Program-made: the position numbers and the translations under genes
NCBI GenBank assembly: GCA_963711565.1
Contig: CAVQEQ010000001.1
Span: 1,248,001 to 1,312,000 of the forward strand
Length of the DNA stretch: 64,000 nucleotides
Direction of reading: 5' to 3'
Source of the DNA: an uncultured delta proteobacterium
GTDB taxonomy: Bacteria > Desulfobacterota > Binatia > Binatales > Binataceae
The notes under the pieces: generated by a model
What the model was told of the DNA's origin: nothing
What the model saw: only the letters and a program-made list of their open reading frames with translations
The model's database searches: none
In this document: piece by piece, positions 1-21,727 of the stretch
Layout of the letters: each line of letters begins with the position of its first letter
How positions within the stretch are numbered: position 1 is the first letter of the stretch

Positions 1-625
1 TCAGTACGTCGCCGCGATGCAGGATGCCGGTAGCCGGGCGCTGCTCCAGCGCCGGCCGCGAATAGAATACCATCTGCGTGCCGCGCATCGTAAACTCGTA
101 GTTGTGTTCTCTCGCGATCCGATGTAGGAACCCAAGGTCCGATTCCTGATTCTGCCGAAGGGCCATGAAACTCACGTCTGGGTTGACGGCCTCACCGCTG
201 ACCGAGAATCCGTGCGCGGTCGCGATGGTCCGCGCCGCTTGAAGGAGCGTTTGACCATCGTAAGCTGTGGACTTCGGGGTGCGTATCGCGGGCGTGATAT
301 ATGCCGCGATGCATCGCAGGTGCACTGCATCGGGCGCGCCCTTAAGCTCGACTTCATCGACCTGAAAAGATGGGCACGGCGCCAATCTCTCATTACGGTA
401 GCCCATCGAGACATCAACCAGATCGCCGCGCTGCGGAAACCACGGCCCCTGCCATCGCTTATCGCGATCCTCAAGCTCGATTTCCAAGTCAGGCGCCGCG
501 CCGCCGGCGTGCGACGTATAGATGATCGAGAGCACCATCTTTTCGATCGCGCCGGTAATCCCTACGCCTCGATAGCTGACTGTCCAGGCGGGCGCGCGGA
601 CCGCGTATGTAGTGACGCCTGCCAT
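1..625 (-). CDS. Phage late control D / baseplate hub-like protein (partial, runs off left edge)
   Basis: Not in the ORF track. Hand translation from ATG at 625 (TGATG overlap with the tape measure stop) gives MAGVTTYAVRAPAWTVSYRGVGITGAIEKMVLSIIYTSHAGGAAPDLEIELEDRDKRWQGPWFPQRGDLVDVSMGY...FQVDEVELKGAPD...QNQESDLGFLHRIAREHNY, a typical gpD pattern (Q..ESD..FL.R.A). Confidence 0.8.
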   Translation of the reverse strand, partial: MAGVTTYAVRAPAWTVSYRGVGITGAIEKMVLSIIYTSHAGGAAPDLEIELEDRDKRWQGPWFPQRGDLVDVSMGYRNERLAPCPSFQVDEVELKGAPDAVHLRCIAAYITPAIRTPKSTAYDGQTLLQAARTIATAHGFSVSGEAVNPDVSFMALRQNQESDLGFLHRIAREHNYEFTMRGTQMVFYSRPALEQRPATGILHRGDVL

Positions 626-2604
626 CATTCAAGATCGGTTCGACTCTTTTCAGCGAGTCGCCGCTCTACCGCTTTCACAAGTTCATAGCGATGCTTTTCA
701 AACGCCGCCACAACCATTTTCTCAAGCGCCGAAGTATCCGATCCGACTGGAGCATTGATCGTAATCGGGGCGTTGATGATGATTCCGCCGCTAGCGCCAG
801 GCACGCCCGCGGCCATCGCGCCGCCCGCGCCCGCCGCGACGATAGTCGTGCTCGCGATCGCGGCGGCCGCGGCCGTCCGCCGTATCGCGGCGATCACCGG
901 CGAAGGCCGGATATGCTCAGCAACCGTTTCCGCAATTGTGATGTGCTCGCCGAGATGGCTCAGCGGGCCGACTTTGGGCGGCGAATGCCCCTCGAAGTAG
1001 CCCAGGATTCCGCTGCCGATTTTCTCGCACGCGGCCTTGATCGAATCCCAATGCTTATAAATCTCGACGCCGATTAGTCCGAACGGCCCCGCGATTCCCA
1101 TCAGCACCGCTTCGCCAACGGTTTTGGCCCAGCCCATCGTCCAGTTGCCGACGCTGGTGAAGATACTCATCACGCCCGACCACAGACCGGAAAAGAAAGA
1201 CTTGATTCCCGACCAATGCTCGTAAATTTCGTAGCCGGCGACCGCGAGTGCAGCCGCGCCGACAACAACCAATCCCATCGGGCTGATCATCGCCCCCAAA
1301 ATCGTTGGGACGGCCTTCAAAATCGTCGGAACATAGCTCAGCGCCTTCATCGCGTTGCCGATACCGATGGTCGCCATGCCGAACGTCGAGAGCGCGGACG
1401 CTGCGCCGCTGAGGCCCACCCCGGCAACCGATAAACCGATAACCAGACCCTTGGTGGCCCACGAATATTTGTCGCTCGCCGCGGTCGCGCCCTGGATCAA
1501 AGTGGTCAGCTCTCCAAATTTGGTCGAAAACCACGGCAGCGCCGGCGACGCCATCGAGTCGTAGAGGTTGTCGAGATTCTGATGCATCTTATCGAGCTGA
1601 TCGGCCGCGTCGCCCGTTGCCGTCGTGAAACCAATGCCCAGCGCGCCAGCCGCACTCGCGCCTCTGCGTGCGGCTGCGGTAACCTTGTCCAGGCTGTCCA
1701 GATATTTGATCAGTCCGCCCGGATCGCCGATGCCCATCTCCTTCAGCGCTTCGATCTTCTCCATCGAGGGCATGGCCGCGAGGTTTTCGCGTAGCTGTGT
1801 CAGTCCGCCGATAATTCCTTTTTGCCAATCGACGCCGCTTTTACCGCTGTCAACCAGATCCTTAATCATCGAGGCGAACCTGATCGCGCCCCGTCCGCCG
1901 CCGCCGAACTGCTGGCTGGCTTCGCCGGCCAGTGCGAGCAACTCCGAAAATGAAGTATGGGTTTCCGCAGCCGTACCGCCCAACTGCCCTACCGCCTGGG
2001 CCAATTGCTGTGTGCTTTCTTTTCCAACGTTGAACTGCGTCGTCATTTTGAAAAATTGATCGCCCGCAGTCTGTGCATCGACGCCGAAATTGGTAGACGC
2101 AGCACCAAACAAGTTCGCCGCCGCCGCACCATCGACGCCGAACCTGGTGAGCATCGCCGCCGAGTCCTCAGCGGCCATGGCTTTGTTCGTATCCTGGAAG
2201 ATCGCGCGCATCCGCGTGAAGCCGGAGACCCACTCCTCGGCCGTGGCGCCCGCATGCGTACCTGAAAAAGCGACGGCATGTTCCTTCAGCTTCGCGAGTT
2301 CTCCACCGGCGAGGCCCGTCATCGCGGCCGTAGTCGCGAGCGATTTCTGCATCGCAAATGCGGGCTCGCTGATCGCGTCGCTCAGCTCGTGCAGATGGTC
2401 CGCGCCGTCCTTCATCAGAGCCGCGTCGAGCGAGATCCGCTCGCCGAACCTGGTCAGACCCTCCCCTGCCGCATCGATCTTGCCGGCAAACTCCTGAACT
2501 TTATCTCCGAGGTTCAGGAATCCGCCGCCGAACGAGCTGAGCTTGTCGCTCAGCTGATCGATCGCCTTGAACTCGACGCCATAGGTGATCATTTTGTCGG
2601 CCAT
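625..2604 (-). CDS. Phage tail tape measure protein
   Basis: 659 aa and Ala/Gly-rich. N-terminal F.AID..S motif, W-spaced repeats (IYEHWSGIKSFFSGLWSGV, IYKHWDSIK), and the HSPPKVGPLS motif typical of P2/Mu-type TMPs. Confidence 0.88.
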   Translation of the reverse strand: MADKMITYGVEFKAIDQLSDKLSSFGGGFLNLGDKVQEFAGKIDAAGEGLTRFGERISLDAALMKDGADHLHELSDAISEPAFAMQKSLATTAAMTGLAGGELAKLKEHAVAFSGTHAGATAEEWVSGFTRMRAIFQDTNKAMAAEDSAAMLTRFGVDGAAAANLFGAASTNFGVDAQTAGDQFFKMTTQFNVGKESTQQLAQAVGQLGGTAAETHTSFSELLALAGEASQQFGGGGRGAIRFASMIKDLVDSGKSGVDWQKGIIGGLTQLRENLAAMPSMEKIEALKEMGIGDPGGLIKYLDSLDKVTAAARRGASAAGALGIGFTTATGDAADQLDKMHQNLDNLYDSMASPALPWFSTKFGELTTLIQGATAASDKYSWATKGLVIGLSVAGVGLSGAASALSTFGMATIGIGNAMKALSYVPTILKAVPTILGAMISPMGLVVVGAAALAVAGYEIYEHWSGIKSFFSGLWSGVMSIFTSVGNWTMGWAKTVGEAVLMGIAGPFGLIGVEIYKHWDSIKAACEKIGSGILGYFEGHSPPKVGPLSHLGEHITIAETVAEHIRPSPVIAAIRRTAAAAAIASTTIVAAGAGGAMAAGVPGASGGIIINAPITINAPVGSDTSALEKMVVAAFEKHRYELVKAVERRLAEKSRTDLE

Positions 2605-2617
2605 CGGACTTTGACTC

Positions 2618-2908
2618 CTATCGGATCGCGTCCTTGCGGAACTCTTCGCGCATCGCGTGGAGCTGACGCGCCAACTCCGCGATCTCCTCGTCAGTCGGCA
2701 GACGCGACATCAGCCCATGCATTCCCTCTCGAAACACCTGAGCGTGGACCGCCTCAACTTCCGGCGAAAACTCCATCTCTCCGATCGCCTCGATCGTTCC
2801 GAGGATAAGATTCATCGGCCGGCGAAAGCCCGACTCGACGCGCGCCGCCATCTCGTCCATAACCTCGGCGAGCGGCCCATGATTTTTCTTTTTTCCCGGC
2901 TTCCCCAC
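2618..2908 (-). CDS. Hypothetical phage protein
   Basis: 96-aa ORF co-oriented with the operon, GAGG upstream, ends 13 bp before the TMP start. Confidence 0.55.
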   Translation of the reverse strand: MGKPGKKKNHGPLAEVMDEMAARVESGFRRPMNLILGTIEAIGEMEFSPEVEAVHAQVFREGMHGLMSRLPTDEEIAELARQLHAMREEFRKDAIR

Positions 2909-3143
2909 CCCTCACCTCGTCCTAGCCGTGATTCACGGCCACAGAGCGCGCCGCAAGCGCGGCGATCGCTATTCCTGAGAGTCCTTCAAACAAAGCGCGC
3001 GCGCTTTGCTGGCGGCCCGTGCCGCCCCGTTTCGTCGGCGCGGCGACCTCACACCCGTCGAAGCCGTTAGTAACGGGCACAGCGCCCGTCGCAAGCGCGG
3101 CGCGAGCCATCCGCGCCGCGAGTCTCCCTAAAGAAAATAAGGT

Positions 3144-3233
3144 GCTGGCGGCGCGTGCGACTACGGGAGGAGTTGTCCCGAAGCCGCCAGCCGCCCAAGG
3201 CGATGCGGTGATATGAGTCCGCACGCCGCCAGC
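3144..3233 (-). ncRNA. Candidate structured RNA module 1 (four-way junction)
   Basis: Closing stem GCTGGCGGCG/CGCCGCCAGC with three internal hairpins. Near-duplicate of 3253-3339 with compensatory changes. Confidence 0.5.
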
Positions 3234-3252
3234 GAGTCGAATGTGAGGAAAT

Positions 3253-3339
3253 GCTGGCGGCGCGGGCGACTTTGGAGGAGTAGTCCAAAGTCCATCCGCC
3301 GCCCAAGGCGATGCAGTGACACCTCCGCATGCCGCCAGC
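3253..3339 (-). ncRNA. Candidate structured RNA module 2 (four-way junction)
   Basis: Same closing stem and internal hairpins as 3144-3233. Stem CGGGA/TCCCG is replaced by TTGGA/TCCAA with pairing kept. Confidence 0.5.
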
Positions 3340-3567
3340 GAGTCTAAAAACAGATGCGCGCGCCGCCGGCGAACCGGAACGTCGGACGGCGCGCTCAGCG
3401 CGCCGCGACCTTTCGACGCGCGCAAGATTGGGATGCCGGCGGGAAGATGAGATGCGCAGCGCCGACGGCATTGCACCATGCGCCACGTATCGCGAGGCGG
3501 AGAACCTACTACTAGAACCCCCCCCGCATCCCGCCGGCAAGCAAATCATTTTTTTGCGGCGTTCCGA

Positions 3568-3975
3568 CTACGGCAGTTCCAGAATGACCAGGCCCGTTTG
3601 CGTATCCGGCGTGCAGCTCGCGCTCGCCGTGATGAAGCTGTACGGACCGCTCGGAACGATCGAATCGTGAACGTCCCAACTCTTCGATGCGCCTGCCGCC
3701 AATAAATAGCCCTGGCCGAACACCGCCGCAGTGCCGCGAAACTGAATGGTCACAGCGCTCGCGCACTGGTTCTGAATCTCCAGATGCTCCACGAATTGAG
3801 GCTGCGAAAGCGACGAATTAACTGAGACGGCGGTCGCGCTGGCCGCGATCGGCGTGTACACGCCAGTCGTCAGCGCAGTCGGATTTGCGAAAGCAAATGC
3901 TTGAGCTGCCGAGAGCAGCATCGCCGCTACTACTGCGAAAACTGTTTTCCTCATCCTCATCCCCATCATCCTCAC
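3568..3975 (-). CDS. Secreted beta-rich hypothetical protein
   Basis: Signal peptide (RKTVFAVVAAMLLSAAQAFA), two Cys, beta-strand-rich mature part. Confidence 0.65.
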   Translation of the reverse strand: MRMMGMRMRKTVFAVVAAMLLSAAQAFAFANPTALTTGVYTPIAASATAVSVNSSLSQPQFVEHLEIQNQCASAVTIQFRGTAAVFGQGYLLAAGASKSWDVHDSIVPSGPYSFITASASCTPDTQTGLVILELP

Positions 3976-4014
3976 TTTATTGCCGCCGATTTTTCTGGCG
4001 GAGTTTTCAGACCG

Positions 4015-4500
4015 TCAAACTTTGCGACCCTCGCGATCGTCGCGTTCCGGGTAGGGCGGCACCATTCGTTCCAGGAGCTGCATGACATAGAGCGCTCCGT
4101 CGAGAAGCCGATCGTACATCTCGCCGTCGTCGCTATTAGTGTCGCAGTCCTTCAGTGCGGAGATGGCTGCGTCTCGAAGTTCGAGATCCGAAGCGCTTTC
4201 CGCAAACTTGGGATCGGCGTCATAGGCGGCCTTGTGCGCGCGATCAACTTCCTGATGCGATAGAGATAGTCCCGGTTTACCCACACTCGCCCGCGCGGTC
4301 TCCCCGCCAGACTGTCGAGCGAGCGCCGCGGCAAATGCGCGACGGCCTATGCCGAAAGACCGCGCTACGGCCAATTCATCTCGCGTCAAGCCGTGGGTAT
4401 TTTCTGATCGCGAGAGGCGCGCGACCCTCGTCGCTAGCTGTTCGGGCGGGATTCCGAAGGTCGCCGCGATCTTCTTTTGGTCCGCGGTAAGAGTACTCAT
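4015..4500 (-). CDS. Hypothetical protein with two Mu scaffold-like (LT..E..VA..FGI) motifs
   Basis: AGGAG RBS before ATG at 4500. Motifs LTADQKKIAATFGIPPEQL and LTRDELAVARSFGIGRRAF. Confidence 0.65.
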   Translation of the reverse strand: MSTLTADQKKIAATFGIPPEQLATRVARLSRSENTHGLTRDELAVARSFGIGRRAFAAALARQSGGETARASVGKPGLSLSHQEVDRAHKAAYDADPKFAESASDLELRDAAISALKDCDTNSDDGEMYDRLLDGALYVMQLLERMVPPYPERDDREGRKV

Positions 4501-4628
4501 CAAATTCTCCTGATTGCGGCTGCCCCGAGCCGTCCTCGTTTCATGGGCTGTCAGCGGACTGAGGACTCCGTCGTAACAGGTCTCGATCTCATCTGGCCGA
4601 AATTCCCTCATCTCTCAAAATTCCGCGC

Positions 4629-5249
4629 TTACCACTGGCGGTGATGCGTGCCCTCGCCGCGCTCGCGCCGAGCGTCGTTATCCCGTTCGTGCTGAATCGC
4701 CGCGGCTTCCCGTTTTTCGAGCCCTTCGATGTGCGCGTTGGTCAGGATGCCGGGAACCTCTCTGCGCGTGACTTCGCGGTCGCCCAGCTTCACGGAAGAG
4801 ACCCGAATAGCGCTGATCCGATCTCCATCTCGGAAAAACTTCTTGAGCCCGTCGATCTCCTCTGCGGTCCAACTCGCCTGCTGAAATACAGGATGAGTTC
4901 GATACAACTCTTCCTGGAAGCTGGGCGCCTTTTCCGGGATGCTCAGTCGCCGGCAAGCCTCTTCCATCTCGAAGACCTTGCTCCGAAGGGTGTTTAGATC
5001 GGCACCGTTTCGGATCAGATCGTCGATCATCTTTGAGTGCGAAGCCATGTTGCCCACGGCGGCGCGTTCCCGCTCAGAAGTCGGAAACTTCAGCGCCGCG
5101 ATGCGCGCCCGCGCCGCTTTGACGATCTCGATCGGATCGCGCGCTTGTCGGAGCCGCTCAGTTGCTTCATCGCAATCCGTCGCCATCGCCTTGACCAGAG
5201 TTCCGTTCTCCGGAGCCTGAGCCTCGTTGTTCTCTTCCGCCGCCTTCAT
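4629..5249 (-). CDS. Hypothetical phage protein
   Basis: 206-aa ORF, ATGA overlap with the upstream GemA stop, GAGG RBS. Confidence 0.65.
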   Translation of the reverse strand: MKAAEENNEAQAPENGTLVKAMATDCDEATERLRQARDPIEIVKAARARIAALKFPTSERERAAVGNMASHSKMIDDLIRNGADLNTLRSKVFEMEEACRRLSIPEKAPSFQEELYRTHPVFQQASWTAEEIDGLKKFFRDGDRISAIRVSSVKLGDREVTRREVPGILTNAHIEGLEKREAAAIQHERDNDARRERGEGTHHRQW

Positions 5250-6115
5250 AGGTCACCTCTCGTCGAATTTTTATTCCGCGGGCCGCGAACCGCGCCCGGA
5301 GTTTCTGTCTCGTCCGCGTCGGCCTTCAACGCCGAGCGCATGCCTTCTGCGATCGTCCGATCCACTTCCGCGACGCGCCCGACGAGCCAAAACAGCTCGC
5401 CCCGAACCTTCTTAAAGTCCCATTTCAAAAGAGCTTGCCGGGCTCTCTCCCCAAACTCGCGCACCAGGTCCGCGACTTGCGCCGCGATCTGCGCGTCGGC
5501 GAAATTCTGCGCGTCGAGAAGCACCAGGACGTTGCGGATTCCCTCGATCGGAGTCCCGGCTTCACCGACCAGGCGCATCGCGTCGAATACGCCGGCCTTC
5601 ACGATCGCGCTCGCGGGGATCGCGACCGCGGCCGGCTGGTTCTCCGCGATCGGGTGTTTGATCAGCCACTTTTTGCGCCAGCCCTTGAGCGCTTCGATCA
5701 CCTTGTTCGCATCAGTCGCGTCGAGCCACTGAAGCCTCTCGACGCCGGTGATTTTCCGCACGAATTTTTGCAGCCATCGTCCGGTCGAATTGGCCTTGAC
5801 CGCGCCGACGCGCTCCAGCTCATATGCACAAACGAGCAATTTCTTGAGATGCTGCGCGCCCGGAGATTTCGGATCGATGCGAATCCAATCGTCCTCGCGA
5901 GCGCGCGGCGGTGCCGAGTTAAATCCCTTGCGCGCAAATTCGTCGAGCAGCGCGCGTCGCTCCGCCTCTGTCATGTTCGCCGACGAATCGGTGCGCCCTT
6001 TCGTGATACGCTCGATCATCATGCGATACGCTTCATCGTCCAGGCAGAGCTGTTTTTTCGCGAGATGAATCTTCGCGAGTTCAGCCTGTCGGATTTTCTG
6101 CGGCGGCGTTCTCAT
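5246..6115 (-). CDS. gemA: GemA-like (Mu gp16/DUF1018) regulatory protein with C-terminal extension
   Basis: LAKIHLAKKQLCLDDEAYRMMIERITKGRTDSSANMT...FVRKITGVERLQWL...ANKVIEALKGW is the gp16/GemA signature. Start coupled to the AlpA-like stop. Confidence 0.85.
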   Translation of the reverse strand: MRTPPQKIRQAELAKIHLAKKQLCLDDEAYRMMIERITKGRTDSSANMTEAERRALLDEFARKGFNSAPPRAREDDWIRIDPKSPGAQHLKKLLVCAYELERVGAVKANSTGRWLQKFVRKITGVERLQWLDATDANKVIEALKGWRKKWLIKHPIAENQPAAVAIPASAIVKAGVFDAMRLVGEAGTPIEGIRNVLVLLDAQNFADAQIAAQVADLVREFGERARQALLKWDFKKVRGELFWLVGRVAEVDRTIAEGMRSALKADADETETPGAVRGPRNKNSTRGDL

Positions 6116-6363
6116 CACGGTTCTGAATCCTTGACCTGCTTGATCGTCGCTCCCGTCACTTCCCGCTCCGCCAGCCAAGCCAACACGCGCGCGCGCGAAT
6201 ATCGGACCACTGCTTTCGAGACCTGGAAGTAAGGCGGCCCCGATCCCTCGCGCCGCATACGCTTGAATGTTTCGTCCGCAACCCCTATGAGCCGCGCGCA
6301 CTCTTCCTGGGAAATGATCTCATCATTGAGCGATAGCGCCGGTCTGTTTGTTTCGTCCGACAT
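6115..6363 (-). CDS. AlpA/excisionase-like HTH DNA-binding protein
   Basis: IISQEECARLIGVADETFKRMRREGSGPPYFQVSKAVVRYSRARVLAWL is a HTH_17/AlpA pattern. Confidence 0.8.
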   Translation of the reverse strand: MSDETNRPALSLNDEIISQEECARLIGVADETFKRMRREGSGPPYFQVSKAVVRYSRARVLAWLAEREVTGATIKQVKDSEP

Positions 6364-6891
6364 TTAGCTCTTTGCCGTTTTCCGCGTTCGCGCGGCTACC
6401 CTCGGGCATGTCGTTTCCAGCAGCGCCAATGCGATCGATGCGCGTAGAATCAATTCCCCGCAAAGCTCCGATGATGGGACTTCGTCCTCGCCCACATGCC
6501 ACGTTAAGGCAGCACAACCCTCGATATATCGCGATCCGAGAGCGGTGGTCGGTGCGTTCCCAATCTCATAGAGGTTACGACTACAGTTTTCGTGAACTGA
6601 GAAGACCATTTCTTCTAAGAGCCGGCGCAGCTTGCTAAAAGCGTCGGTGGTATTCTGAGATGCCTTTCCGATCGAAATCGTGATCTGATCGCGCGCTGGG
6701 CACCATTGGTCTATGTGCCGAAAATGCCTCGCCGATCTGAGCACCGGCCATGCCGTCGCCCAAACGTCATCGTATTTGGCGCGAGCGACGATGAACGCTT
6801 GGAGCGCGGACCGCACTTTGCCGATAGTCGCCGGATCTAAAATGCTTTCCGGTTTGAAGAGCGGGGTTGTTTTTTGCTCGGCTTTTTTCAC
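6364..6891 (-). CDS. Hypothetical phage protein
   Basis: Likely GTG start at 6891 after GAGGAGG, overlapping the upstream stop. Abuts the AlpA-like start. Confidence 0.6.
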   Translation of the reverse strand: MKKAEQKTTPLFKPESILDPATIGKVRSALQAFIVARAKYDDVWATAWPVLRSARHFRHIDQWCPARDQITISIGKASQNTTDAFSKLRRLLEEMVFSVHENCSRNLYEIGNAPTTALGSRYIEGCAALTWHVGEDEVPSSELCGELILRASIALALLETTCPRVAARTRKTAKS

Positions 6892-7319
6892 GGCTGTCCT
6901 CCTCTCTGACGTTCCACGAACGCGCCCAATCGAGCGAGCCGTTTGTCGCATGAGACAATTTGTGCCGCGCACTCCGCGCGCAGATCGCGCAGCGCGGAGA
7001 TTTCTAAATTCGGGTCAAGCGTGAGCCCCTTCCTGCCAACCCTCGGAGCAAAAGGTCCGGTGTTGCGGATCAGCGCATAGACGCTGCCATCGCAGCCGCG
7101 CGCATGCTCGGCAACTCTCAGATAACCCGCGCGCGTCAAGTCCTGGAGGAAGCGCTCAGCCGCCTTGCGCCCCGCGATCTCGGCGACTTGAATCAGATCG
7201 CGAATGTGGAACTGCCGAAGGATGCGCATCGCGCGCCACATTCGTTCGCGCGCGGCGCTCGGCGCGCCGGCGAGATTCACGCCGGCGCCGCGTCCACGTT
7301 TATTTTTGACGGTTTCCAT
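6888..7319 (-). CDS. Winged-helix protein conserved downstream of the ATPase in B3/BcepMu-like transposable phages
   Basis: RERMWRAMRILRQF...YLQ-like...LTRAGYL...YALIRNTGPFAP motif; coupled to the ATPase stop. Confidence 0.7.
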   Translation of the reverse strand: METVKNKRGRGAGVNLAGAPSAARERMWRAMRILRQFHIRDLIQVAEIAGRKAAERFLQDLTRAGYLRVAEHARGCDGSVYALIRNTGPFAPRVGRKGLTLDPNLEISALRDLRAECAAQIVSCDKRLARLGAFVERQRGGQP

Positions 7320-8059
7320 CAGGCCGCCGCCGCCGCGAGATCAGCGCGCCGGTTGACTGGCGGCGGCGTCGAATCGTCCATCGGATAATCCGCCAGCGCG
7401 ATCTGCTTGAGCGCCCGCCTGCGGCAGAACGCTTCCACCGCCGCCAGCTCCTTGACGAACAGTCCGGCCGATCCGCGCGTCTTTTTGTGAAGCGCCTCGA
7501 TCAGGTCATCGCCGAGCCGCACTTCGGCCAGCTCGGTCGCGAGCAGCCTGCTATCGTCGAGCGTGGAACTCTTAAATTCTACTTCGCGGAGTATCCGCCG
7601 CTCGATTTGCTCACGCCGCTTTATTTTTCCGCGAAATTCCGCGGTACCGCCAATGAGGACAAGCGGAATCGCCGTCATGTCGTGAATGGCGCGCAGAGTC
7701 TCGACGAGATCCTTTTTCTCTACGATCCCGTCGGCTTCATCGACATAAATCGGCCGCGGCAGATCCGTCAGGCCGCGCACGATTGTCTCGTACATCGGCC
7801 GCAGTTCCCGCGATGGCTTTTCGCCCATCTCGCGGCAAATGTCGCTGAGCATCCAGCGCGGATTCCACAAATGAAGTGCCGTCAGAAAGATCGCGCCCTG
7901 CTTCAGAGCCTGATGCGCAGCGATGCAGGTCTTTCCTCTTCCGCTTCCGCTGCTATGAATCAGGATGATGCCCGGTAGCGATGGATCGCGCGCGATCGCC
8001 GCGGCGATGGCACCGATTCCCGCCTTGTAATTACTCGTCGCACAGATTTTTACCCGCAT
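7319..8059 (-). CDS. MuB-like AAA+ transposition ATPase
   Basis: Walker A (SGSGRGKT), Walker B (IYVDEAD), ETLRAIHD..IPLVLIG; directly after the transposase. Confidence 0.88.
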   Translation of the reverse strand: MRVKICATSNYKAGIGAIAAAIARDPSLPGIILIHSSGSGRGKTCIAAHQALKQGAIFLTALHLWNPRWMLSDICREMGEKPSRELRPMYETIVRGLTDLPRPIYVDEADGIVEKKDLVETLRAIHDMTAIPLVLIGGTAEFRGKIKRREQIERRILREVEFKSSTLDDSRLLATELAEVRLGDDLIEALHKKTRGSAGLFVKELAAVEAFCRRRALKQIALADYPMDDSTPPPVNRRADLAAAAA

Positions 8060-10113
8060 TTTTTGACCTCCTCGGTCCGTTCGTTACTTGAAGCCGGGAC
8101 GCGCTCAGCCCACCGCATCGCGCGAAAGTCGCTCGTCATTTCGTAGCCCAAAGCCCAACTGTCGGGCGTATTTTTGTAATGCGCGAGAAAGCGCTGTTCA
8201 CGCAAAGTCAACGCCCGGTGCTCGCGCCGAATCGCGATCCAGAGCTGATCACATTCGTCTTCGCTCAACTGCAATTCTCGGATTTCACGCCGCCGCTCTA
8301 TTTCCTGTAGCGCGATATTTCCATCGCGCAGTACCTCGTCGCTATGCGGTTCCGGTTCGGCCGGCGCGTCGAGCGCTTGCAGCGCCGCCGCCGCCGCCGC
8401 GATACCCGGTGAGCGATGCGGCAATGCAGTGATTTCAGTTCCGGGCGCGGGAAGCTTAACGGCGTCGCGCGCAGCGCACGATTCGATAATGTCGCGGTAT
8501 GTGGTTTCAGGCCGGTGCTTTCGCTTGAGCGCGCGCAGCTCGTCCATGCCCTCGCGCATCTTCCTGTTCTGATCCTGCTTGGCCGCTATCGCCATCACCT
8601 GCCGGTCGAGGCCGGCGGACTCAGGATTGATCGCGACGCAGATAAACTTCGTGCCGTCGCCGCTGAAGATGATCAGCTTGCCCTGGTCGCGCGTGCGCAC
8701 GTACTGAACGCCCTGTTCGATATACGCTTCGAGTGCGTTGCCCTCGTCCCAATAGAATGCGTTATCGACACGGATACCCTTCTTGCCGACCGTCGCGGTG
8801 CCATCTTCGCCCAGCAGCACGTCGAGCAGCCGCTCGTCGGCCACGCGCCGAACCTGTCCGCGCCGATCCGCCTCGGCAAAAACCTCGTTGGGAGTCCGCC
8901 CGCCGAGCCCCGAATGCTTTTTGTTGCCGTAAACATGCTCCAGCCACTTGTCGAGCAGGTCTTGCAGCTCGGGCGCGGTCAGCTCGATTCGATAGAGCCG
9001 CCGCATATTGCGCCGCGCGCCGCGGCCGGGCGCATAGCCGGCGCGCTCGCGGATTTTCGACGCCTCTTTCACATCGTGGCCGATGTAGCCGGGCAGGTTG
9101 ACGAAAAAAGAGTGGAGCACCGTGCCGATTCCGCGCTCGATGTGTGGTTTTCGCCATCCCGAATAAGCTGGCGTCGCCGGCCACGCGATCCCGAGCCGCG
9201 CGATTCCGCGCTGCGTGCGCGCCGAGACGAACCCGGCGCCGTTGTCGTGCGAAATCTCGTCGGGAACGCCGCGCAGCGAAATCCCTTTGATCACCATCTC
9301 CGCAACCGCGTTAGAAGACTCAACCGGCGCCAGATGGGCGGTAATCACGCGCGAGCAAACGTCGATCTGCCCCATCACGTGCAGCCTGCCGCCCGGCGTC
9401 TCGACCGTGCCGAGCACATAAGAGTCGGCCGGCGTGCCGTCTATCTCCCAAAGCTGATTTACCCGCGTGATATTCGCGTCGGCATCGCCGATCGCGAGCA
9501 TGTGGCGGTTTTTCCAGCCGGCAGGGTCTTCGATCCGCACATACAGCGAATGGTTCTGCTGCTTCCAATCGCGGATGAACTTCTGCACCGCGTCGATGCT
9601 CGGAATCCGATCGTTTGGAAACCGAGCCTCGATTCCTTCGAGCACGAATTGCGCGTTAACCTTCGGGTTGTGCGCGATCTGGGCGATCACGAACTCACGC
9701 ATCAAGGAATTGCGCGCGATGATCGAGTCGCCGCGCCGCTTGCCATAGCCCGGCACCAGGCCGGCAATGCCGGACTTCTCGAATCGGCGCCAAGCCTTTT
9801 GCAGCGTCGGCCATTCGATGCTCTGCCAGAGTTCGCGCGCGTTGGCACTCACTTCGATCTGACCGTGATTAAAGCGCTCGCAGAAATCCTTGCCCGCAGC
9901 GTTCAGCGCCTTGCACGATCGCTTTCTGAACGCACGGAACGCCGCGACGATCTCCGCCATCGCCAGCGCGCGCGCGGCAATCTTCGTCGGAATACCATCG
10001 AGCGGATCGAGAGGAGCGAGCGGCGCGGCAACAACCGGCAGCGTGACAGCGCGCGCGTCGTCCGACAGCGCCGGCCGTTCCACGAGCTGCACGCTGCGCG
10101 CCGCCTCACTCAT
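8050..10113 (-). CDS. MuA-like DDE transposase
   Basis: 687 aa. Catalytic motifs LWEIDGTPAD, HDNGAGF and KPHIERGIG, plus YGNKKHSGLGGRTP and the Mu-transposase C-terminal TVGKKGIRVDNAFY. Confidence 0.92.
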   Translation of the reverse strand: MSEAARSVQLVERPALSDDARAVTLPVVAAPLAPLDPLDGIPTKIAARALAMAEIVAAFRAFRKRSCKALNAAGKDFCERFNHGQIEVSANARELWQSIEWPTLQKAWRRFEKSGIAGLVPGYGKRRGDSIIARNSLMREFVIAQIAHNPKVNAQFVLEGIEARFPNDRIPSIDAVQKFIRDWKQQNHSLYVRIEDPAGWKNRHMLAIGDADANITRVNQLWEIDGTPADSYVLGTVETPGGRLHVMGQIDVCSRVITAHLAPVESSNAVAEMVIKGISLRGVPDEISHDNGAGFVSARTQRGIARLGIAWPATPAYSGWRKPHIERGIGTVLHSFFVNLPGYIGHDVKEASKIRERAGYAPGRGARRNMRRLYRIELTAPELQDLLDKWLEHVYGNKKHSGLGGRTPNEVFAEADRRGQVRRVADERLLDVLLGEDGTATVGKKGIRVDNAFYWDEGNALEAYIEQGVQYVRTRDQGKLIIFSGDGTKFICVAINPESAGLDRQVMAIAAKQDQNRKMREGMDELRALKRKHRPETTYRDIIESCAARDAVKLPAPGTEITALPHRSPGIAAAAAALQALDAPAEPEPHSDEVLRDGNIALQEIERRREIRELQLSEDECDQLWIAIRREHRALTLREQRFLAHYKNTPDSWALGYEMTSDFRAMRWAERVPASSNERTEEVKKCG

Positions 10114-10427
10114 ACGGCCGCCTCGCGCGCCGGTTCTTTCAACACCTTCCGCGCTCGCCGTTCAGCGCGGAGCCGTTCGCGCTCGGGCCACAATTCCTCC
10201 GGCGTTCGGCCGATCGCGGCGGCGACTATGCGTTCTGCGATCGGCCAAGGCCGGTCGAAAACATGACTGAGTGTGCTCGGATGCCAGCCGCGAGATTTTG
10301 CTAGAGCTGCGAGAGAAGTGCCGCGCCGGCGAAGTTCAGCTAGAATGGCGAAGCGATCTATTCCGCTTGACGCGGAAACCGCGAGGCGCTTAGATCGCTC
10401 TGCTCGCTTTGGTCGATGCCGTTCCAT
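10110..10427 (-). CDS. ner: Ner/Nlp-family transcriptional regulator
   Basis: ILAELRRRGTSLAALAKSRGWHPSTLSHVFDRPWPIAERIVAAAIGRTPEELWPER is the Ner signature; ATGA overlap with the transposase. Confidence 0.9.
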   Translation of the reverse strand: MERHRPKRAERSKRLAVSASSGIDRFAILAELRRRGTSLAALAKSRGWHPSTLSHVFDRPWPIAERIVAAAIGRTPEELWPERERLRAERRARKVLKEPAREAAV

Positions 10428-10467
10428 TGGCAGAATATATTCGTCTGAAATCAGGAGATTGTCAACT

Positions 10468-10974
10468 ATGAAGAGTAGACAAGCTCCCTCATCGAAAGAT
10501 CGGGCCGCGCCTTCCGATCCCATGTCCGACCGAATCGAATATTGCTTTCGCGTGGCCGGCGGCGTGCGCGCGGTTTCTAAAGCCACCGATCTGGTTGAAT
10601 CCCTGCTCTACCGTTACCGGAAACCGGGCGCGTCAAGGCGAACCGACGTATTGTCGCTGATCGCCAAGGCGGCCAATGTGAGCGAGGCGTGGCTTCTAAC
10701 CGGCATCGAGACCGATCCATCGAAGAGCACTTCCGCACGGCCGAAATATCATTCCCTGGCGGATTTGCCCTATCGCATGTCGGCTGAATATGAGATGGAC
10801 GCCGCCGCCCGACGTGAGTTGATCTTTGAGCGAGAGGGCGGCGCCGAGTTCAAGGACGCAACCCTTCGAGCGCTCGAAGAAGAGCTGCACCGTCTCAAAG
10901 GAAGGATCGAGGTTTTGGAATCGCAATTGGCCGCCAGCAGACCGCGCGGCGGAAAAAAAGCTGCACGCGCGTAA
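10468..10974 (+). CDS. Phage repressor (Cro/CI-type HTH)
   Basis: Divergent from ner, AGGAG RBS, HTH ending IAKAANVSEAWLLTG, C-terminal coiled coil. Start could be 10521. Confidence 0.8.
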   Translation: MKSRQAPSSKDRAAPSDPMSDRIEYCFRVAGGVRAVSKATDLVESLLYRYRKPGASRRTDVLSLIAKAANVSEAWLLTGIETDPSKSTSARPKYHSLADLPYRMSAEYEMDAAARRELIFEREGGAEFKDATLRALEEELHRLKGRIEVLESQLAASRPRGGKKAARA

Positions 10975-10989
10975 AAGAGGGTTCACGAA

Positions 10990-11328
10990 ATGGGGGCAAA
11001 AGCGTTCGCTCGACTATTGGTACTGATCGGCTTTGTCTCAATGGGCTGCTCGCACGGCAGCTTGCCGCACGATCGCCTCAACGGAACCTGGACCAGCGAC
11101 ATTATGACCATCACGATCGATTTCCCCGCCCACAAATATTCGGGCGTTGCGATGGGCGAGCCGTTTTCGCACTACCTGGACCTGGTGAGCGAAAACGCCA
11201 ACGTCGTGGTCTTCAAAGAGAGCGACGCAACCATCGTCTGCCAGATTCAGGACGACGGCAGCATTATGATCACCAAGCAGGGCTCCGAAGGCGGAATCCC
11301 TATGATCCTGCACCGCGCCAAAGACTAA
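10990..11328 (+). CDS. Lipoprotein (moron-like)
   Basis: Lipobox-like VSMGC after a hydrophobic stretch; LNGTW lipocalin-like start; GAGG RBS. Confidence 0.7.
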   Translation: MGAKAFARLLVLIGFVSMGCSHGSLPHDRLNGTWTSDIMTITIDFPAHKYSGVAMGEPFSHYLDLVSENANVVVFKESDATIVCQIQDDGSIMITKQGSEGGIPMILHRAKD

Positions 11329-11336
11329 CCGGAAAA

Positions 11337-11750
11337 ATCAAAGTTCCCTTCCGAAACTTTGATCATTGTTCGCCTAGGGAACAATGATCCCGAACCCCGC
11401 CAGAATACCGGCCCGGCATTTTGATTTTCGCGATCACAGTCGTCCTCGACGACTATGATTTTAGCCGCGCCAAGGCGCGCCTAGACCAGGCGTTCGCGTA
11501 TGTCGCGGACGACGGCATGCGAAATCAAAGTCGTGCTCGACGATTTTGATCTTTCCGAGATCAAACTCGCGGACGACGAGTTTGATCGGCCGGCCCCTTT
11601 TCAAGATCGCTAGAGACGATCTTGAAATCACCCTCGCGCTCGACGAGGGTGATTTCCTCCGGTTACGTCGCAGGCTCATGTCGTAGGCGACGACATGATA
11701 AGTGTCGTGGCCCCGCGACACTTCCATCATGTTCCCGAAGGGAACATGAG
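11337..11750. repeat. Array of about 10 imperfect palindromes, consensus ATCA-N3-TCG-N7-CGA-N3'-TGAT
   Basis: 27-bp units start at 11337, 11362, 11433, 11524, 11560, 11600 and 11627. 25-bp variants start at 11675 and 11726, and related hairpins at 11494 and 11700. Confidence 0.9.
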
Positions 11751-11906
11751 AAGTCATAAGCCCCACTAATTTATCGAGCCGCGCAGACGATCCGGTTTTC
11801 AGGGTTGTGAGCGCTCATTGGCCCTTCGCGACGAGGCGCGGGCGCTTTTCGGTCAAAAGTGCCCTAACTATCCGATTTTGCTAGCGAATCATATCAAATG
11901 GAAAAA

Positions 11907-12178
11907 ACCGCTCTTAGTTGGATCTAATTCCTAACTAGGGATGCGTTAGCGCGACACGGCGCGTCGTGGCGCTATCAGTTTCCAGACTGGCCCGATTAGA
12001 CGAATCCTACTCCGAACTTAGCCCCTGCCCCACGGCTTTGCGATGAGCGCTCGCGTCAGAAAACCCCGTCCAGACGCGGGTTTCGATGCGTCCGTCGTCC
12101 CATGATGTCCCCCCCAGTCCCACGAAATCCCGCGAATTGCCTCGGAAGAGTTTAGATCCAACCATGAGCGGTGTCACA
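11907..12178. repeat. Element terminus with inverted 21-bp putative transposase-binding sites
   Basis: ACCGCTCTTAGTTGGATCTAA (+, 11907-11927) matches ACCGCTCATGGTTGGATCTAA (-, 12172-12152) at 19/21. The outer site starts 6 bp inside a TG...CA-type end. Confidence 0.75.
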
Positions 12179-12510
12179 CCACCGTTACCAGGCGATTTAC
12201 TTTGGATTCTCTCCTTCGAGAACAGAGCCGGTGCTCTTCGCATCACTGTCCGCCAAAAACGTCTTCGCCAGGACATCGCCTTCAAGCGAGGGAAATCCAT
12301 ACGAGGCTTCTTGAGTCCGCCCGACCTGGGATTCGGTAATCGCCGTGCAGCTTGAAGCGGCCCGTCTGTGGCGAATTCCAATTCATGCGGCAATTGGGGT
12401 CTGAAACAATCCGTTTGCAGTGTTGCCGCCAGCGATATGAGTGAAGGTTTGCGATTGGAGGAGGAACTGCGCCGTTGCGTTGAGCCGGCGTGGCTCCGGA
12501 GCTGCTGCGT

Positions 12511-15300
12511 TTACCGCTCTTTCAGTTCGGCCAAGAAGACGGCCGACCTGCCAACCTCCAGGAATTCCTTAGCATCGAGGGTATCGAAAAGCTGGATAGT
12601 CTTGGCCACGAGGCCGGTCCATCCAGTCTGATGGCTTGCGCCGAGCCCGGCGCCGTTGTCGCCGTGGAAGTACTCGTAGAACAGAATATAGTCGCGCCAA
12701 TGCGGGTCGGACTGAAATTTCTCGCTGCCCCCGTACACAGGACGACGGCCATCTTTGTCACGCAGAAAGGTAGCGCCAAGCCTACGGGTTATCTCGTGGC
12801 TCACTTGAAAAAGATTCATTAGTTGGCCGGAACCAGTAGGGCATTCGATCTTAAAGTTGTCGCCGTAATAGAGATAGAACTGCAATAGTGCCCGAATAAC
12901 TATGATATTCACCGGAAACCACACTGGGCCTCGCCAGTTTGAGTTACCGCCAAACATGCCGGTGTTCGACTCCGCCGGCAAGTAGTCTACGCGATACTCC
13001 CGGTCACCGACGTTCAGGATATAGGGATGATGCTCGTGAAACTTCGATAGAGAACGAATGCCGGTAGGACCCAGAAATTCGTTCTCATCGAGCACTCTAG
13101 AAAGGATTCGGCGCAAACGCTCGGGACCAACCAAAGCTATGATGCCGCGCTCGTAGATTCCGAAATGCCCGGGCCCGGTAGGATGAATGTAATTCCATAG
13201 CTCGGGCATCCGCTGGCGCCGTCTATCCAAGAGAGTCATCGCCGACGGCATCCGTTCGCGTTGCCATCGCTCGACGACAGTGGTTGCGCAGAGCGGCAGC
13301 AGCCCTACCATCGATCGCACCTTGAGCCGTTTGGCGCTGCCGTCCGGGAGTCGCAAGAGATCGTAGTAGAAGCCGTCTTCCTCGTCCCACATCCCGTCGT
13401 CGCCGGGACGGTTCATAGCTGTAGCGATGTAAAGGAAGTGCTCGAGGAACTTGACCACCATATCTTCGGAGGTGTGGTCGTAGGCAAGGAGTTCTATCGC
13501 CAGTTCTGCCATGTTTTGGCTGTACAGCGCCATCCATGCGGTGCCGTCGGCCTGCTCGAGGCTGCCTCCAGTGGGCAAAGGTGCGCTCCGATCGAAAATC
13601 CCGATATTGTCGAGACCCAGGAAACCACCTTCGAAAACATTCTTGCCGAACCGGTCCTTGCGATTGATCCACCAAGTGAAATTCAAGAGGAGCTTTTCAA
13701 AACACCACTTGAGGAAATCGATATCAGTTTCGGCCCCCAGGGCCTGCTCCGTGCGATGCAGGAATAGAGTCGCCCAGGCATGGACCGGCGGGTTAACATC
13801 GCTGAAGTTCCACTCGTAGGCGGGAATCTGGCCGTTGGGGTGCATATATAACCCCTTGAGCATGAGACGTATCTGCTGACGGGCGAACTCCGGGTCCACG
13901 GTCGAAAGCGCGACGGTATGAAAGGCGAGGTCCCAAGCCGCATACCATGGATACTCCCATTTGTCGGGCATCGAGATGACGTCGTCGTTGAGCATGTGGT
14001 ACCACTCCTGGTTGCGGGAGTGCCGGATTCCGTGTTTCAACGGATTGGCGCGATGTTCGTCCAACCACTTATCCGCGTCCAGGTAGTAGAACTGCTTAGT
14101 CCACAGCATTCCAGCGAGCGCTTGACGCATCACATTGGCCGCGTCCGGGGACGCCGCAGCCGGGATCACCGACCGGTAGAACTCGTCGGCCTCGTCCAGG
14201 CGGGCTGCAAAGATCTCATCAAAATTCTTCCCGAACGAAAAAGCATCTTTCCCGCCGCCCTTTGACTGTTCCCCGAGCGCTTGACCAGTCAAGCGTAATC
14301 GCGCCGTTGCCGATTGCCCAGAGTTTATCGTGAATCGGTAGCGCGCCGCGGCTTTGGTCCCGCGCAGGTCCGGATTCACCGTTGGTTTCCCATTCGTCAC
14401 GAAGTCGTTGATGCCGTCTTTCACATAGGGGCAGGCGTTGGGATATTCGGGAAAGAGGCGCTGGTTGTTGGTCTCGTTCTCGGTAAAGAGAAGCGGCACC
14501 TCACCTTCGCAATACAGATGGTACTTTCCGAGTTCGCGATGCTCAGCGGCTATGGCTGTGCTACCAGACGGAGCTTCGATCCACTTGAGAGTCGGTCGCT
14601 CGGCGGGTCTAGAAATCCATGATGACCAGTCATTGCGGAACCAGAGAGTCGGCAACAAATACAGTGGCGCCGGTTCGGGTCCCCGGTTCCACACCGTTAT
14701 CCTTATTAGAATGTCGTCGGGGGCGGCCTTGGCATATTCTACAAAAATGTCGAAATAACGGTCGCCGTCAAAGATTCCCGTGTCCAGAAGCTCATACTCT
14801 GGGTCGTTGCGTGTGCGGCGCGCATTGACTTTTATCAGGTCGCCGTAAGGATAGGCCGCTTGGGGATACTTGTAGAGGTACTTCATGTACGAGTGTGTCG
14901 GCGTACTGTCAAGGTAGAAGTAGTACTCTTTCACGTCCTCGCCATGGTTTCCCTCGCTGTTCGTGAGTCCGAAGAGCCGCTCCTTTAAGATAGGGTCCTT
15001 GCCGTTCCATAGAGCTAGTGCAAAGCACAGCGCTTGCTTGTCGTCGGAGAGACCTGCCAGGCCGTCCTCGCCCCATCGGTAGGCACGCGAGCGGGCCTGA
15101 TCATGGCTGAAGTAGTTCCAAGCGTCGCCCGTGTCGCTATAGTCTTCGCGTACGGTGCCCCACTGGCGCTCGCTAAGGTAAGGACCCCACCGCTTCCACG
15201 GCGTTTGGTGAATGCGCTCCTGGTAGAGACGTTCTCGCTCGGCGGGCATGTTGGTCTCGCTCCTCAGGATCCGGTTTTGCTTAGGTGTCGCGTGCGCCAA
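12511..15300 (-). CDS. MGH1-like / GH63-like glucosidase
   Basis: WKRWGPYLSERQWGTVREDYS, SMPDKWEYPWYAAWDLAFH and EYFHGDNGAGLGASHQTGWTGLVA motifs. Start may be 15249. Confidence 0.88.
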   Translation of the reverse strand: MAHATPKQNRILRSETNMPAERERLYQERIHQTPWKRWGPYLSERQWGTVREDYSDTGDAWNYFSHDQARSRAYRWGEDGLAGLSDDKQALCFALALWNGKDPILKERLFGLTNSEGNHGEDVKEYYFYLDSTPTHSYMKYLYKYPQAAYPYGDLIKVNARRTRNDPEYELLDTGIFDGDRYFDIFVEYAKAAPDDILIRITVWNRGPEPAPLYLLPTLWFRNDWSSWISRPAERPTLKWIEAPSGSTAIAAEHRELGKYHLYCEGEVPLLFTENETNNQRLFPEYPNACPYVKDGINDFVTNGKPTVNPDLRGTKAAARYRFTINSGQSATARLRLTGQALGEQSKGGGKDAFSFGKNFDEIFAARLDEADEFYRSVIPAAASPDAANVMRQALAGMLWTKQFYYLDADKWLDEHRANPLKHGIRHSRNQEWYHMLNDDVISMPDKWEYPWYAAWDLAFHTVALSTVDPEFARQQIRLMLKGLYMHPNGQIPAYEWNFSDVNPPVHAWATLFLHRTEQALGAETDIDFLKWCFEKLLLNFTWWINRKDRFGKNVFEGGFLGLDNIGIFDRSAPLPTGGSLEQADGTAWMALYSQNMAELAIELLAYDHTSEDMVVKFLEHFLYIATAMNRPGDDGMWDEEDGFYYDLLRLPDGSAKRLKVRSMVGLLPLCATTVVERWQRERMPSAMTLLDRRRQRMPELWNYIHPTGPGHFGIYERGIIALVGPERLRRILSRVLDENEFLGPTGIRSLSKFHEHHPYILNVGDREYRVDYLPAESNTGMFGGNSNWRGPVWFPVNIIVIRALLQFYLYYGDNFKIECPTGSGQLMNLFQVSHEITRRLGATFLRDKDGRRPVYGGSEKFQSDPHWRDYILFYEYFHGDNGAGLGASHQTGWTGLVAKTIQLFDTLDAKEFLEVGRSAVFLAELKER

Positions 15301-15323
15301 CTCTATGGAGACGAACTAGGTCG

Positions 15324-18300: not shown

Positions 18301-18527
18301 ATCGCGTTCTTTACGCCGTTGACCGACTGCTCGATCGGTACGCCCACCGTCTTGGCGACAGTTTCAGCGCTCGAGCCCGGATAGTTCGTGGTCACCTGGA
18401 TCGTCGGCGGCACGATTGGCGGATACTGTGAGACGGGCAAGGAGTAGAGACAAACAAACCCGAGCAGTACGATCACTACCGCGAAGACGTTCGCGAGGAC
18501 CGGCCGCTCGATAAAGAACTTCGACAT
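15324..18527 (-). CDS. RND efflux permease (HAE1/AcrB family)
   Basis: MSKFFIERPVLANV, GIVVDDAIVIVEN, KNAILIVEFA, RFRPILMTS. Confidence 0.95.
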   Translation of the reverse strand: MSKFFIERPVLANVFAVVIVLLGFVCLYSLPVSQYPPIVPPTIQVTTNYPGSSAETVAKTVGVPIEQSVNGVKNAIYMQSTSGSDGSYTLTVSFTIGTDLDTSLALVQNAVNGSLSELPAPVKDQGVNVKEVTTNILLMESLYSDDNRFDETFLSNYATINLVNPIARIPGVGQVKVIGAGAYSMRIWLDPNKLKTFGLTVLDVQNSIQSQNNQVASGQIGGPPVPSNQVFQFTVNTQGRLSDPKEFENIIIKSRLAPTLAGQTVNSAQPSETASIVRLKDVAKIEMSQQQFTLFSNLSGKKAGHIAIYALPGANSLQVASAVRALMAKMSSTFPEGLKYTPLYDTTVFIGQAIHAVYVTLGEAGILVLIVIVIFLQNFRAMLVPATTVPVTIIGAFAAMALLGFSVNLMTLFALILAIGIVVDDAIVIVENCTHYIEEGLSPKDSAIKAMGELTGPVLGVTLVLTSVFLPASFLPGITGQMFRQFALVIASTALISAANALTLKPTQCALYLRPRPKDYKPNWFYSEFNRGFAAVEDRYIGLVSWMVARPFTMVAGFFAVLFLVGFAFSIYPTSLLPLEDQGYCIISAELPEGSAQPRVREVSDRINAILKESPGIKGWVTMGGFSALDSANVSNYVTVFCIYDDWSKRPAGLTQAGIIKHIQEKVQSIRTASFDVMPPSPIPGLGTAFGFQMVVEDRASNGLRELQKATHVLLDRAQSVDGFLRLGFTTFSDNSPQIYLNIDRTMAESLGVPVNDVSETLQTYLGSTYVNQFNKFNQAFQVRVQAEADSRRALADIQNLDVMNKEGQMVPLGALLSVRRMLGSELVTRYNLYPAAILTGIPMPSYSSGQALSMMANFADETLPAGMSYEWTGLAYQEEQTGSQAYFIFALSITLVYLVLAAQYESWTDPIAVILVVPTALIGILVALVIRKFPVDLYTQIGLVLMIALAAKNAILIVEFARDLAAQGMGTMEAAVEATRRRFRPILMTSIAFILGVVPLLTATGAGAASQQSLGTVVFGGMLASTLLAIPFVPVFFVSVRHIFGPLSAPAVAPGAPRQGPAVPSN

Positions 18528-18536
18528 TGGCTAGCC

Positions 18537-19733: not shown

Positions 19734-19740
19734 CGGGTTC

Positions 19741-21359: not shown

Positions 21360-21727
21360 CCAGATGATCCAGGCAGGACATCAGGACAACCAGTGCGAGG
21401 GGGCAAGGAGCAGTAGGCCGGAATTTCTTTTTTGGCTTTCAAAGCTCGATTCCTGCCATTCACCAATCTCAGTGTCAAGTCGCGACCTCCGTGACGATCG
21501 CGGCAGGCTCCGGGATTCGCGGGTTATCAAAGTTCGAGCCGTTCGACCGCCCGGCGCACGCTCACTCGTGTGCCGACCAGAAACTCGGGCGCACGGCAGA
21601 GACACAGGTGGCCGCATCGGCCGGTCCATAGGAACGGATCCATTTTTTCGCGTCCGCGTCGTTGTAATTGCCCGGCGTTGGAGCGCAGAGTGCGCGAAGC
21701 AGAGTTGAATGCCGAGTTGAAAACAAA

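Follow-up and report, generated by a model that had tools for sequence, protein, structure and literature searches.

A 13.3-kb Mu-like element of Binataceae as a probable phage satellite moved by transposition

Introduction

At the left edge of a 64,000-nucleotide stretch of the genome of an uncultured member of the Binataceae (the window; GCA_963711565.1, contig CAVQEQ010000001.1, or G000:C1:1,248,001-1,312,000, G and C labels denoting the genomes and contigs compared and X labels sequencing runs) lies an intact 13.3-kb Mu-like element, for which the ends, the target duplication, an empty allele and the gene content were established; it recurs in related genomes and is under selection. Judged by its genes, the element is very probably a satellite moved by transposition and packaged by a Mu-type helper, as an earlier note on the same DNA had proposed. 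By this genomic evidence, a phage satellite with Mu-type transposition would constitute a new form of satellite, those listed in PMC12822802 and PMC12987554 being mobile by integrases or as plasmids. A natural satellite family multiplying in this manner would widen both satellite and transposon biology, with its partly tRNA-directed insertion and unusual duplication lengths.

Ends, Insertion Site and Gene Content

The element is 13,300 bp long, its left end lying at window position -1121 (G000:C1:1,246,879), i.e., 1.1 kb left of the window and 106 nt from the end of a tRNA-Ser(GGA) gene. It is bounded by 28-bp TG…CA inverted repeats (25/30 matching) and flanked at both ends by a direct repeat of 7 bp; the matching inverted end sought by the earlier note was thus found, whereas the duplication is not of the 5 bp predicted there. 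The empty site is seen in a metagenome contig from run X1, which may be the source sample; exactly 13,307 bases are missing there, the combined length of the element and a single duplication copy. The right end leads into different DNA in run X3, and the same ends occur at another site in G003.

Within the element, a repressor, Ner, MuA, MuB and GemA region is followed by a tape measure protein (TMP) and a gpD-like hub, all of them unbroken and in the order first described (Table 1). The 2.6-kb gap between GemA and TMP holds the four small open reading frames (ORFs) previously counted, of 206, 198, 135 and 96 aa, together with approximately 430 bp bearing three imperfect repeats of about 108 bp. 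Translational coupling was borne out by ATGA/TGATG overlaps at four junctions (Ner/MuA, MuB/HTH143, GemA/ORF206 and TMP/gpD), and the AlpA-like regulator corresponds to the 82-aa HTH_17/excisionase-like gene. The catalytic triad of MuA (D225/D290/E326) is invariant in the alignment. With its DDE transposase, MuB ATPase, repressor/Ner pair, GemA, Mor, TG…CA ends and target duplication, the element has the hallmarks of a Mu-like phage; being small and self-mobilising, with an incomplete virion set and assembly-modifying genes retained, it also has those of phage satellites in general.

Extension leftwards beyond the window brings only the rest of the hub gene, a Mor-like activator and the left end. 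No terminase, portal, capsid or tube gene was found up to that end with PHROGs and Pfam, which served for the domain assignment of the element ORFs, so that the rearranged complete phage raised as an objection in the earlier note did not materialise. In the element as a whole, the same searches found no head, packaging, sheath, tail-tube or lysis gene, no terminase subunit, none of the capsid and packaging genes typical of cf-PICIs (PICIs being phage-inducible chromosomal islands), and no TnsA or TniQ/TnsD family. Among the scanned ORFs there was likewise no match to a tyrosine or serine integrase or to a primase/replication module, and the ends are inverted repeats with a duplication, not att sites. 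The tRNA was the sole match in an Rfam search, which returned nothing for the ~108-bp repeats, and a scan of IMG/VR with the window MuA found no relative.

A Recurrent Family of Mini-Mu Elements

Genomes of the genus (n = 47) and of the family Binataceae (n = 165) were searched with MuA and TMP profiles and candidate loci were then fetched. The loci with MuA, MuB, GemA and TMP and no capsid or terminase, for which the earlier note had suggested looking, proved to be a recurrent family, hereafter mini-Mu elements. The 25 elements from 21 Binataceae genomes, the genes of which were clustered, form the basis of all family counts; 12 of them reside in 10 genomes of the genus. Strong MuA matches on short contigs of unassignable class (e.g., G019, G369:C70 and G183:C2) were excluded, and four full-type prophages (G063, G167, G327 and G369:C22) were set apart, G063 having been rejected as a mini element on account of its full head module.

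MuA is present in 24 elements (one cut by a contig end), TMP in 23, ORF206 in 23, a protease/scaffold-type gene in 21, GemA in 20 and gpD in 6; some carry extra pieces, namely N-terminal domains of the small terminase (TerS), protease domains, a tail chaperone, a cement gene or a neck gene. Capsid, portal, large terminase, sheath and tube genes were detected by tblastn in none of the 25, and a further 58 ORFs were scanned against PHROGs. The 13 elements with mapped ends (the calls in G027 and G028 being based on weaker inverted repeats) measure 9.8-15.0 kb, with duplications of 5 bp in eight, 7 bp in three, 17 bp in one and none in one; end scans in G070, G344, G302 and G375 gave no convincing pair. 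Eight of the 13 lie 11-109 nt behind the 3' end of a tRNA gene (six Ser, one of these a 3' fragment, one Sec and one Val), as against about 0.1% of the genome per site. The profile of HTH143, the gene after MuB, scores highly in all seven tRNA-Ser elements (five of them in the training set) and weakly in two non-tRNA elements, and has no match in the tRNA-Sec element.

Each copy might alternatively be a decayed Mu-like prophage with its late region deleted, which is very improbable. In its favour, mini-Mu elements interleave with full Mu-like prophages in the transposase tree (at least four label changes), MuA is frameshifted in G003:C12, and the hub is truncated in G061. Against it, relatives in several genera with transposases 41-79% identical share the reduced layout at insertion sites that differ, and have intact ends and fresh duplications of their own, which also disposes of the one-off internal deletion considered in the earlier note. 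The window element falls in a 100%-supported group of seven mini-Mu elements of four genera and one unclassed locus, and the TMP tree repeats this group (both trees being quick IQ-TREE runs without bootstrap, midpoint rooted). The ratio of nonsynonymous to synonymous substitution rates (dN/dS) of element genes is mostly 0.1-0.4 (0.24-0.31 for TMP and 0.15 for gpD), with purifying selection on TMP, ORF198 and ORF206; furthermore, the core gene ORF206 was detected neither in the full phage G369:C22 nor in the resident virion cluster described below. Since neither a rearranged phage nor a one-off deletion was encountered, and since the layout recurs under purifying selection, the satellite reading is well supported as a genomic inference.

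Several further elements deserve mention. A second mini-Mu in G000 (C2:291,035-304,180), with a transposase only 20% identical to the window MuA, follows the same logic, carrying a TerS N-terminal domain, a kelch-like gene, a protease domain, gpD and TMP; the contig ends within this element, and an IS21 lies next to it. The element of G308:C2 (L183:4,544-15,801), 50 nt behind tRNA-Ser(GGA), is flanked by 17-bp direct repeats, unusual for a DDE transposase. G183 holds at least three mini-Mu elements, two of them arranged head to head, TMP gene towards TMP gene (G183:C17:1-16,500; L171). In G019:C274 (L015), a MuA-type element on a contig too short for classification starts approximately 250 nt downstream of glmS, the classic site of Tn7 insertion.

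A Resident Mu-Like Virion Cluster in the Same Hosts

The earlier note had also suggested a test for co-resident complete Mu-like prophages. None was found in G000, which instead contains a transposase-less Mu-like virion cluster (G000:C4:1,523,000-1,565,000; L005-L007) with its portal and protease genes separated by 16 kb of other genes. The cluster encodes a repressor, Mor, endolysin, TerS, large terminase (TerL), portal, protease/scaffold, cement, gpT capsid, gp36/37, sheath, tube, chaperone, gpU, gpX, gpD, gpV, gpW, gpJ, gpI and fibre genes; no match to MuA or MuB was obtained near it in G000. Its gpT-type capsid is present in all 47 genomes of the genus (82-97% identity over full-length matches) and in 121 of the 165 of the family, with weak matches in 2 of 214 genomes from other families of the class. 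The cluster adjoins murF-purE in G000, G033, G017, G088 and G249, which belong to two genera, and dN/dS is 0.03-0.24 for its head, tail and packaging genes, 0.30 for the lysin and 0.38 for Mor.

Synteny and dN/dS thus describe fixed, vertically kept and selected virion genes without a replication module, and the cluster is a candidate for an undescribed system resembling gene transfer agents (GTAs). The latter are domesticated phages according to PMC8987985. In common with GTAs, the cluster has a fixed locus, vertical spread in the family, purifying selection and its own regulator and lysis gene, and no replication or integration genes were found in it; it differs in its Mu-type myophage origin, in its truncated TMP and in that gpF and gpG were not found. 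Of the 134 IMG/VR contigs encoding a resident-type capsid, 80 were fetched (L089-L168) and none had a MuA match, which makes it probable that many are copies from chromosomes classified as viral.

The TMP slot was surveyed in 50 cluster loci having tube and gpU, 28 of which are IMG/VR contigs including some duplicates. A short ORF of 257-496 aa occupies the slot in 35 loci, no ORF in 11 and a broken one in two, a full-length TMP being confined to two divergent clusters. This short ORF is fast-evolving and ends in a TMP-like tail; it is preceded by an RNA-recognition-motif (RRM) gene in the G000 cluster and has moved elsewhere in G018. TMP profile matches are found in 13 of the 47 genus genomes, nine by way of mini-Mu elements, three by way of integrase islands and one through an unrelated prophage.

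The full Mu-like prophage closest to the cluster, G369:C22 (L169, L207 and L208), matches it in gene order, its virion proteins being about 50-70% identical; MuA/MuB, gpF, gpG and, in the corresponding slot, a full TMP are retained. By its sequence, this type is a likely kind of ancestor of the resident cluster and a possible helper. Its MuF protein bears an ADP-ribosyltransferase domain.

The ORF206 and Scaffold-Helix Cassette

ORF206 was found in 44 of the 165 family genomes, and its family comprises 425 clusters at 50% identity. A profile built from mini-Mu elements only matches integrase-primase islands at E values of 1e-10 to 1e-20, with no match in the fetched DNA of G369:C22 or in the resident cluster. 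The 18 further ORF206 loci are mostly integrase islands in the vicinity of tRNA genes; a gene of terminase size is present in many and a TMP match in none, while six islands found through TMP hold both genes. No Pfam family was hit above cut-off and no convincing sequence match was present in the PDB; the structural model (pLDDT, the predicted local distance difference test, 85.7) matched no fold of the viral or PDB libraries at E<=0.001. The PICI-like integrase islands at tRNA genes (L069, L070, L072/L073, L173, L176, L182, L190 and L227-L244) form a large family with ORF206, a scaffold-like helix, their own terminase genes, RRM genes and sometimes TMP as cargo. The ORF206 family offers a marker for satellites in this abundant uncultured soil lineage.

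The gene behind ORF206 often begins with a helix similar to the C-terminal one of the Mu-type scaffold, the alignment-to-alignment comparison giving 84.6% and E 6.7e-6 over 24 columns. A helper-only scaffold profile reached at least 6 bits downstream of 18 of 49 ORF206 matches (one of the 49 being a false match), as against 0/49 on the opposite strand and 2/49 upstream. With the profile reversed, the resident helix ranked first among non-self matches in only one of four variants (E 0.07), the motifs having been chosen by a resident-informed pattern. ORF198 and the resident protease showed no match in pairwise BLAST, and the score of a complex predicted for the resident capsid and the ORF198 helices could not be told apart from a control. 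A role of the cassette in setting head size is suggested by analogy with the small-capsid proteins of PICIs.

Candidate Helpers and a Possible Life Cycle

The resident cluster may well be the helper, and on the genomic evidence there is about an even chance that it is. This reading is favoured by the constant co-residence of the cluster in the genus and by the fact that the gene truncated in the cluster is TMP, which 23 of 25 mini-Mu elements carry. It can be hypothesised, somewhat more tentatively, that Binataceae disarmed a domesticated Mu-like virion set through the shortening of TMP and loss of gpF/gpG, and that mini-Mu elements and unrelated integrase islands, which have the ORF206/scaffold-mimic cassette in common, re-arm it with their own TMP, element and chromosome together making up a bipartite virus independent of any helper phage. 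Once the repressor/Ner switch is lifted, MuA and MuB would amplify the element by replicative transposition, and its Mor (and GemA) would turn on the late genes of the helper. Given that small-capsid cassettes of PICIs redirect head size, ORF206 and the scaffold-helix mimic ORF198 might then steer head assembly and size towards a genome of 10-15 kb. The full-length TMP of the element, here with its own gpD hub, would take the place of the short TMP remnant of the helper, yielding a tail fit for DNA delivery, in the manner established for the satellites known as PLEs. In the next cell, MuA and MuB would insert the element, in the window clade usually just behind a tRNA-Ser gene. If true, this would be a mobile element that restores infectivity to a domesticated phage, and would bear on why GTA-like clusters are kept and who exploits them.

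A number of observations weigh against the resident cluster as helper. gpG (PF05069) was found in none of the 47 genus genomes, phrog_5 is absent from G000 and gpF was not found in its cluster, both genes being present in the autonomous relative G369:C22; a neck-type gene occurs in one element only (G016). With a resident lacking gpG and gpF, and with mini-Mu elements rarely supplying them, the two together may not give infective particles. Satellite-like elements also occur in genomes without any gpT capsid, namely G318 (100% complete), G308 (82%), G322 (94%) and G326 (99%). Two mini-Mu elements (G034 and G151) have no TMP which, together with its absence from the 18 further ORF206 loci, indicates that not every ORF206 element needs to provide TMP; the TMP remnant, moreover, is kept open (dN/dS ~0.5) and may suffice alone. 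The cluster decays in some genomes, G017 (C2, L083) having lost chaperone to gpW with its head genes still conserved. Lastly, the scaffold-like helices of the window element itself score -0.7 bits with the helper-only profile, and no element copy was picked up by a narrow profile made from resident sequences of this helix.

Several of these points suit another, possible though less probable, account of the same satellite, whereby the helper is an autonomous Mu-like phage of the G369:C22 type, arriving by infection or present as a prophage; the resident cluster would be a bystander with another job, TMP and hub would serve PLE-like chimeric tails, and both helpers might be usable. Complete Mu-like prophages with MuA do exist in the family (G369:C22, G327:C207 in part and, with a different type of head, G063 and G167), gpF and gpG are among their genes, elements are present where no resident capsid was detected, and mini and full transposases are intermixed in the tree. 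However, a second, divergent gpT capsid was seen in only 1 of the 47 genus genomes (G015), as opposed to 12 mini-Mu elements in 10 genomes, and G000 itself yielded no complete Mu-like prophage. An autonomous helper alone would also leave unexplained why nearly all mini-Mu elements retain the gene that is truncated in the resident.

It is improbable that the elements are unpackaged transposons that spread by other routes, with TMP, hub and scaffold mimic poisoning the assembly of incoming Mu-like phages as a form of defence. The lack of a terminase subunit in the window element and the virion-gene fragments in its relatives (N-termini of protease and TerS) would suit such a role; on the other hand, the tight size range of 9.8-15 kb, the Mor activators, the small-terminase domains of several mini-Mu elements and the large terminases of the integrase islands fit packaging, and the elements have no recognisable conjugation gene.

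Relation to Known Systems

With transposable phages (Mu and the B3/RS138/HS6-like phages) the element shares repressor/Ner, DDE transposase, MuB, GemA, Mor, TG…CA ends and a target duplication, the nearest isolated phages by MuA being Pseudoalteromonas HS6 (34%) and Ralstonia RS138 (33%). It differs in its length of 13 kb against 35-42 kb, in lacking head, terminase, sheath, tube and lysis genes, in the strongly tRNA-adjacent insertion, and in the 7-bp (once 17-bp) duplication of the tRNA-Ser group, that of Mu being 5 bp. Engineered mini-Mu and mini-D3112 consist of ends and transposition genes and depend on a helper for particles, whereas the window element is natural and diversified and has virion-modifying genes of its own.

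PICIs, SaPIs and P4 are elements of 10-15 kb at tRNA-adjacent sites with an integrase, a primase and att repeats. The window element resembles them in size, site and predicted scaffold-mimic cassette but has none of these three features, its duplication being made by transposition; the PICI-like islands of the same hosts have ORF206, the scaffold helix and sometimes TMP in common with the mini-Mu elements. PLEs are integrase-mobilised parasites of the lytic phage ICP1, from which the element differs in having MuA/MuB and no integrase. According to PMC12987554, PLEs of Vibrio cholerae encode their own TMP, and in PLE11 also a baseplate hub, which are built into chimeric contractile tails; the likeness thus lies in a satellite-encoded TMP and, for PLE11, hub. 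EPIPs of Mycolicibacterium are circular, about 11 kb in size, and have TMP and scaffold genes, a serine integrase, a small terminase and tails longer than those of their helper (PMC12822802); they are similar in size, TMP and scaffold-type genes, and differ in their circular form, serine integrase and small terminase and in having no transposase. A full-text literature search, outside which most subscription papers fall, retrieved no paper describing natural satellites driven by a transposase, nor one reporting a Mu-like cluster from Binataceae.

Features of the Element and Its Flank

Table 1. Features of the element, in window coordinates (negative positions lie left of the window); HTH, helix-turn-helix.
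Feature	Position	Strand	Length	Remarks
Mor-like activator	-760..-416		114 aa	phrog_836 E 1e-12
gpD-like baseplate hub	1..628, continuing to -391	-	339 aa	phrog_52 E 5e-79 for whole gene
Full-length TMP	625..2604	-	659 aa	phrog_28 E 1.5e-25; dN/dS 0.24-0.31
ORF directly upstream of TMP	2618..2908	-	96 aa	present in 4 elements of window clade
Three imperfect repeats	2918..3350		~108 bp each	overlying 185-aa ORF probably spurious
ORF with hydrophobic N-terminus	3568..3975	-	135 aa	58% homologue among virion genes of Mu-like cluster G333:C51
ORF198	4015..4611 (likely start near 4500)	-		predicted scaffold mimic: two helices similar to that at the C-terminus of Mu-type protease/scaffold; a conserved helical hairpin follows
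ORF206	4629..5249	-		core gene common to mini-Mu elements and unrelated integrase islands
GemA with C-terminal extension	5246..6115	-	289 aa	PF06252 E 1e-24
HTH_17/excisionase-like regulator	6115..6363	-	82 aa	
Variable ORF	6364..6891	-	175 aa	
HTH143, after MuB	6888..7319	-	143 aa	phrog_2030; candidate target selector
MuB-like AAA ATPase	7319..8059	-	246 aa	phrog_296, AAA_22; Walker A/B present
MuA-like DDE transposase	8050..10113	-	687 aa	phrog_310 E 1e-72; rve, Mu-transpos_C
Ner-like regulator	10110..10586	-		phrog_769, HTH_35; true start probably downstream of longest-ORF start
Divergent repressor (HTH)	10468..10974	+	150-168 aa	phrog_4
Lipoprotein-like ORF behind repressor	10990..11328	+	112 aa	in 4 elements of window clade
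Internal end-motif copy, inverted relative to right end	11907..11927			likely transposase binding site
Right terminal inverted repeat	12151..12178			CA terminus
Target-site duplication	12179..12185		7 bp	same 7 bp precede left end

The window repressor is short, an HTH protein of 168 aa as against 254 aa in relatives such as G034. Short palindromes are clustered between the 112-aa ORF and the right end (window 11,340-11,750), as they are in G003, G034 and G061, and may constitute an operator or enhancer region. Beyond the right end, a 9.3-kb stretch with glucosidase and RND pump genes is present twice in G000 at 98.8% identity (window 12,226-21,560 and G000:C2:279,159-288,491); both copies adjoin a mini-Mu, which could reflect duplication, co-transfer with the element or an assembly that mixes strains.

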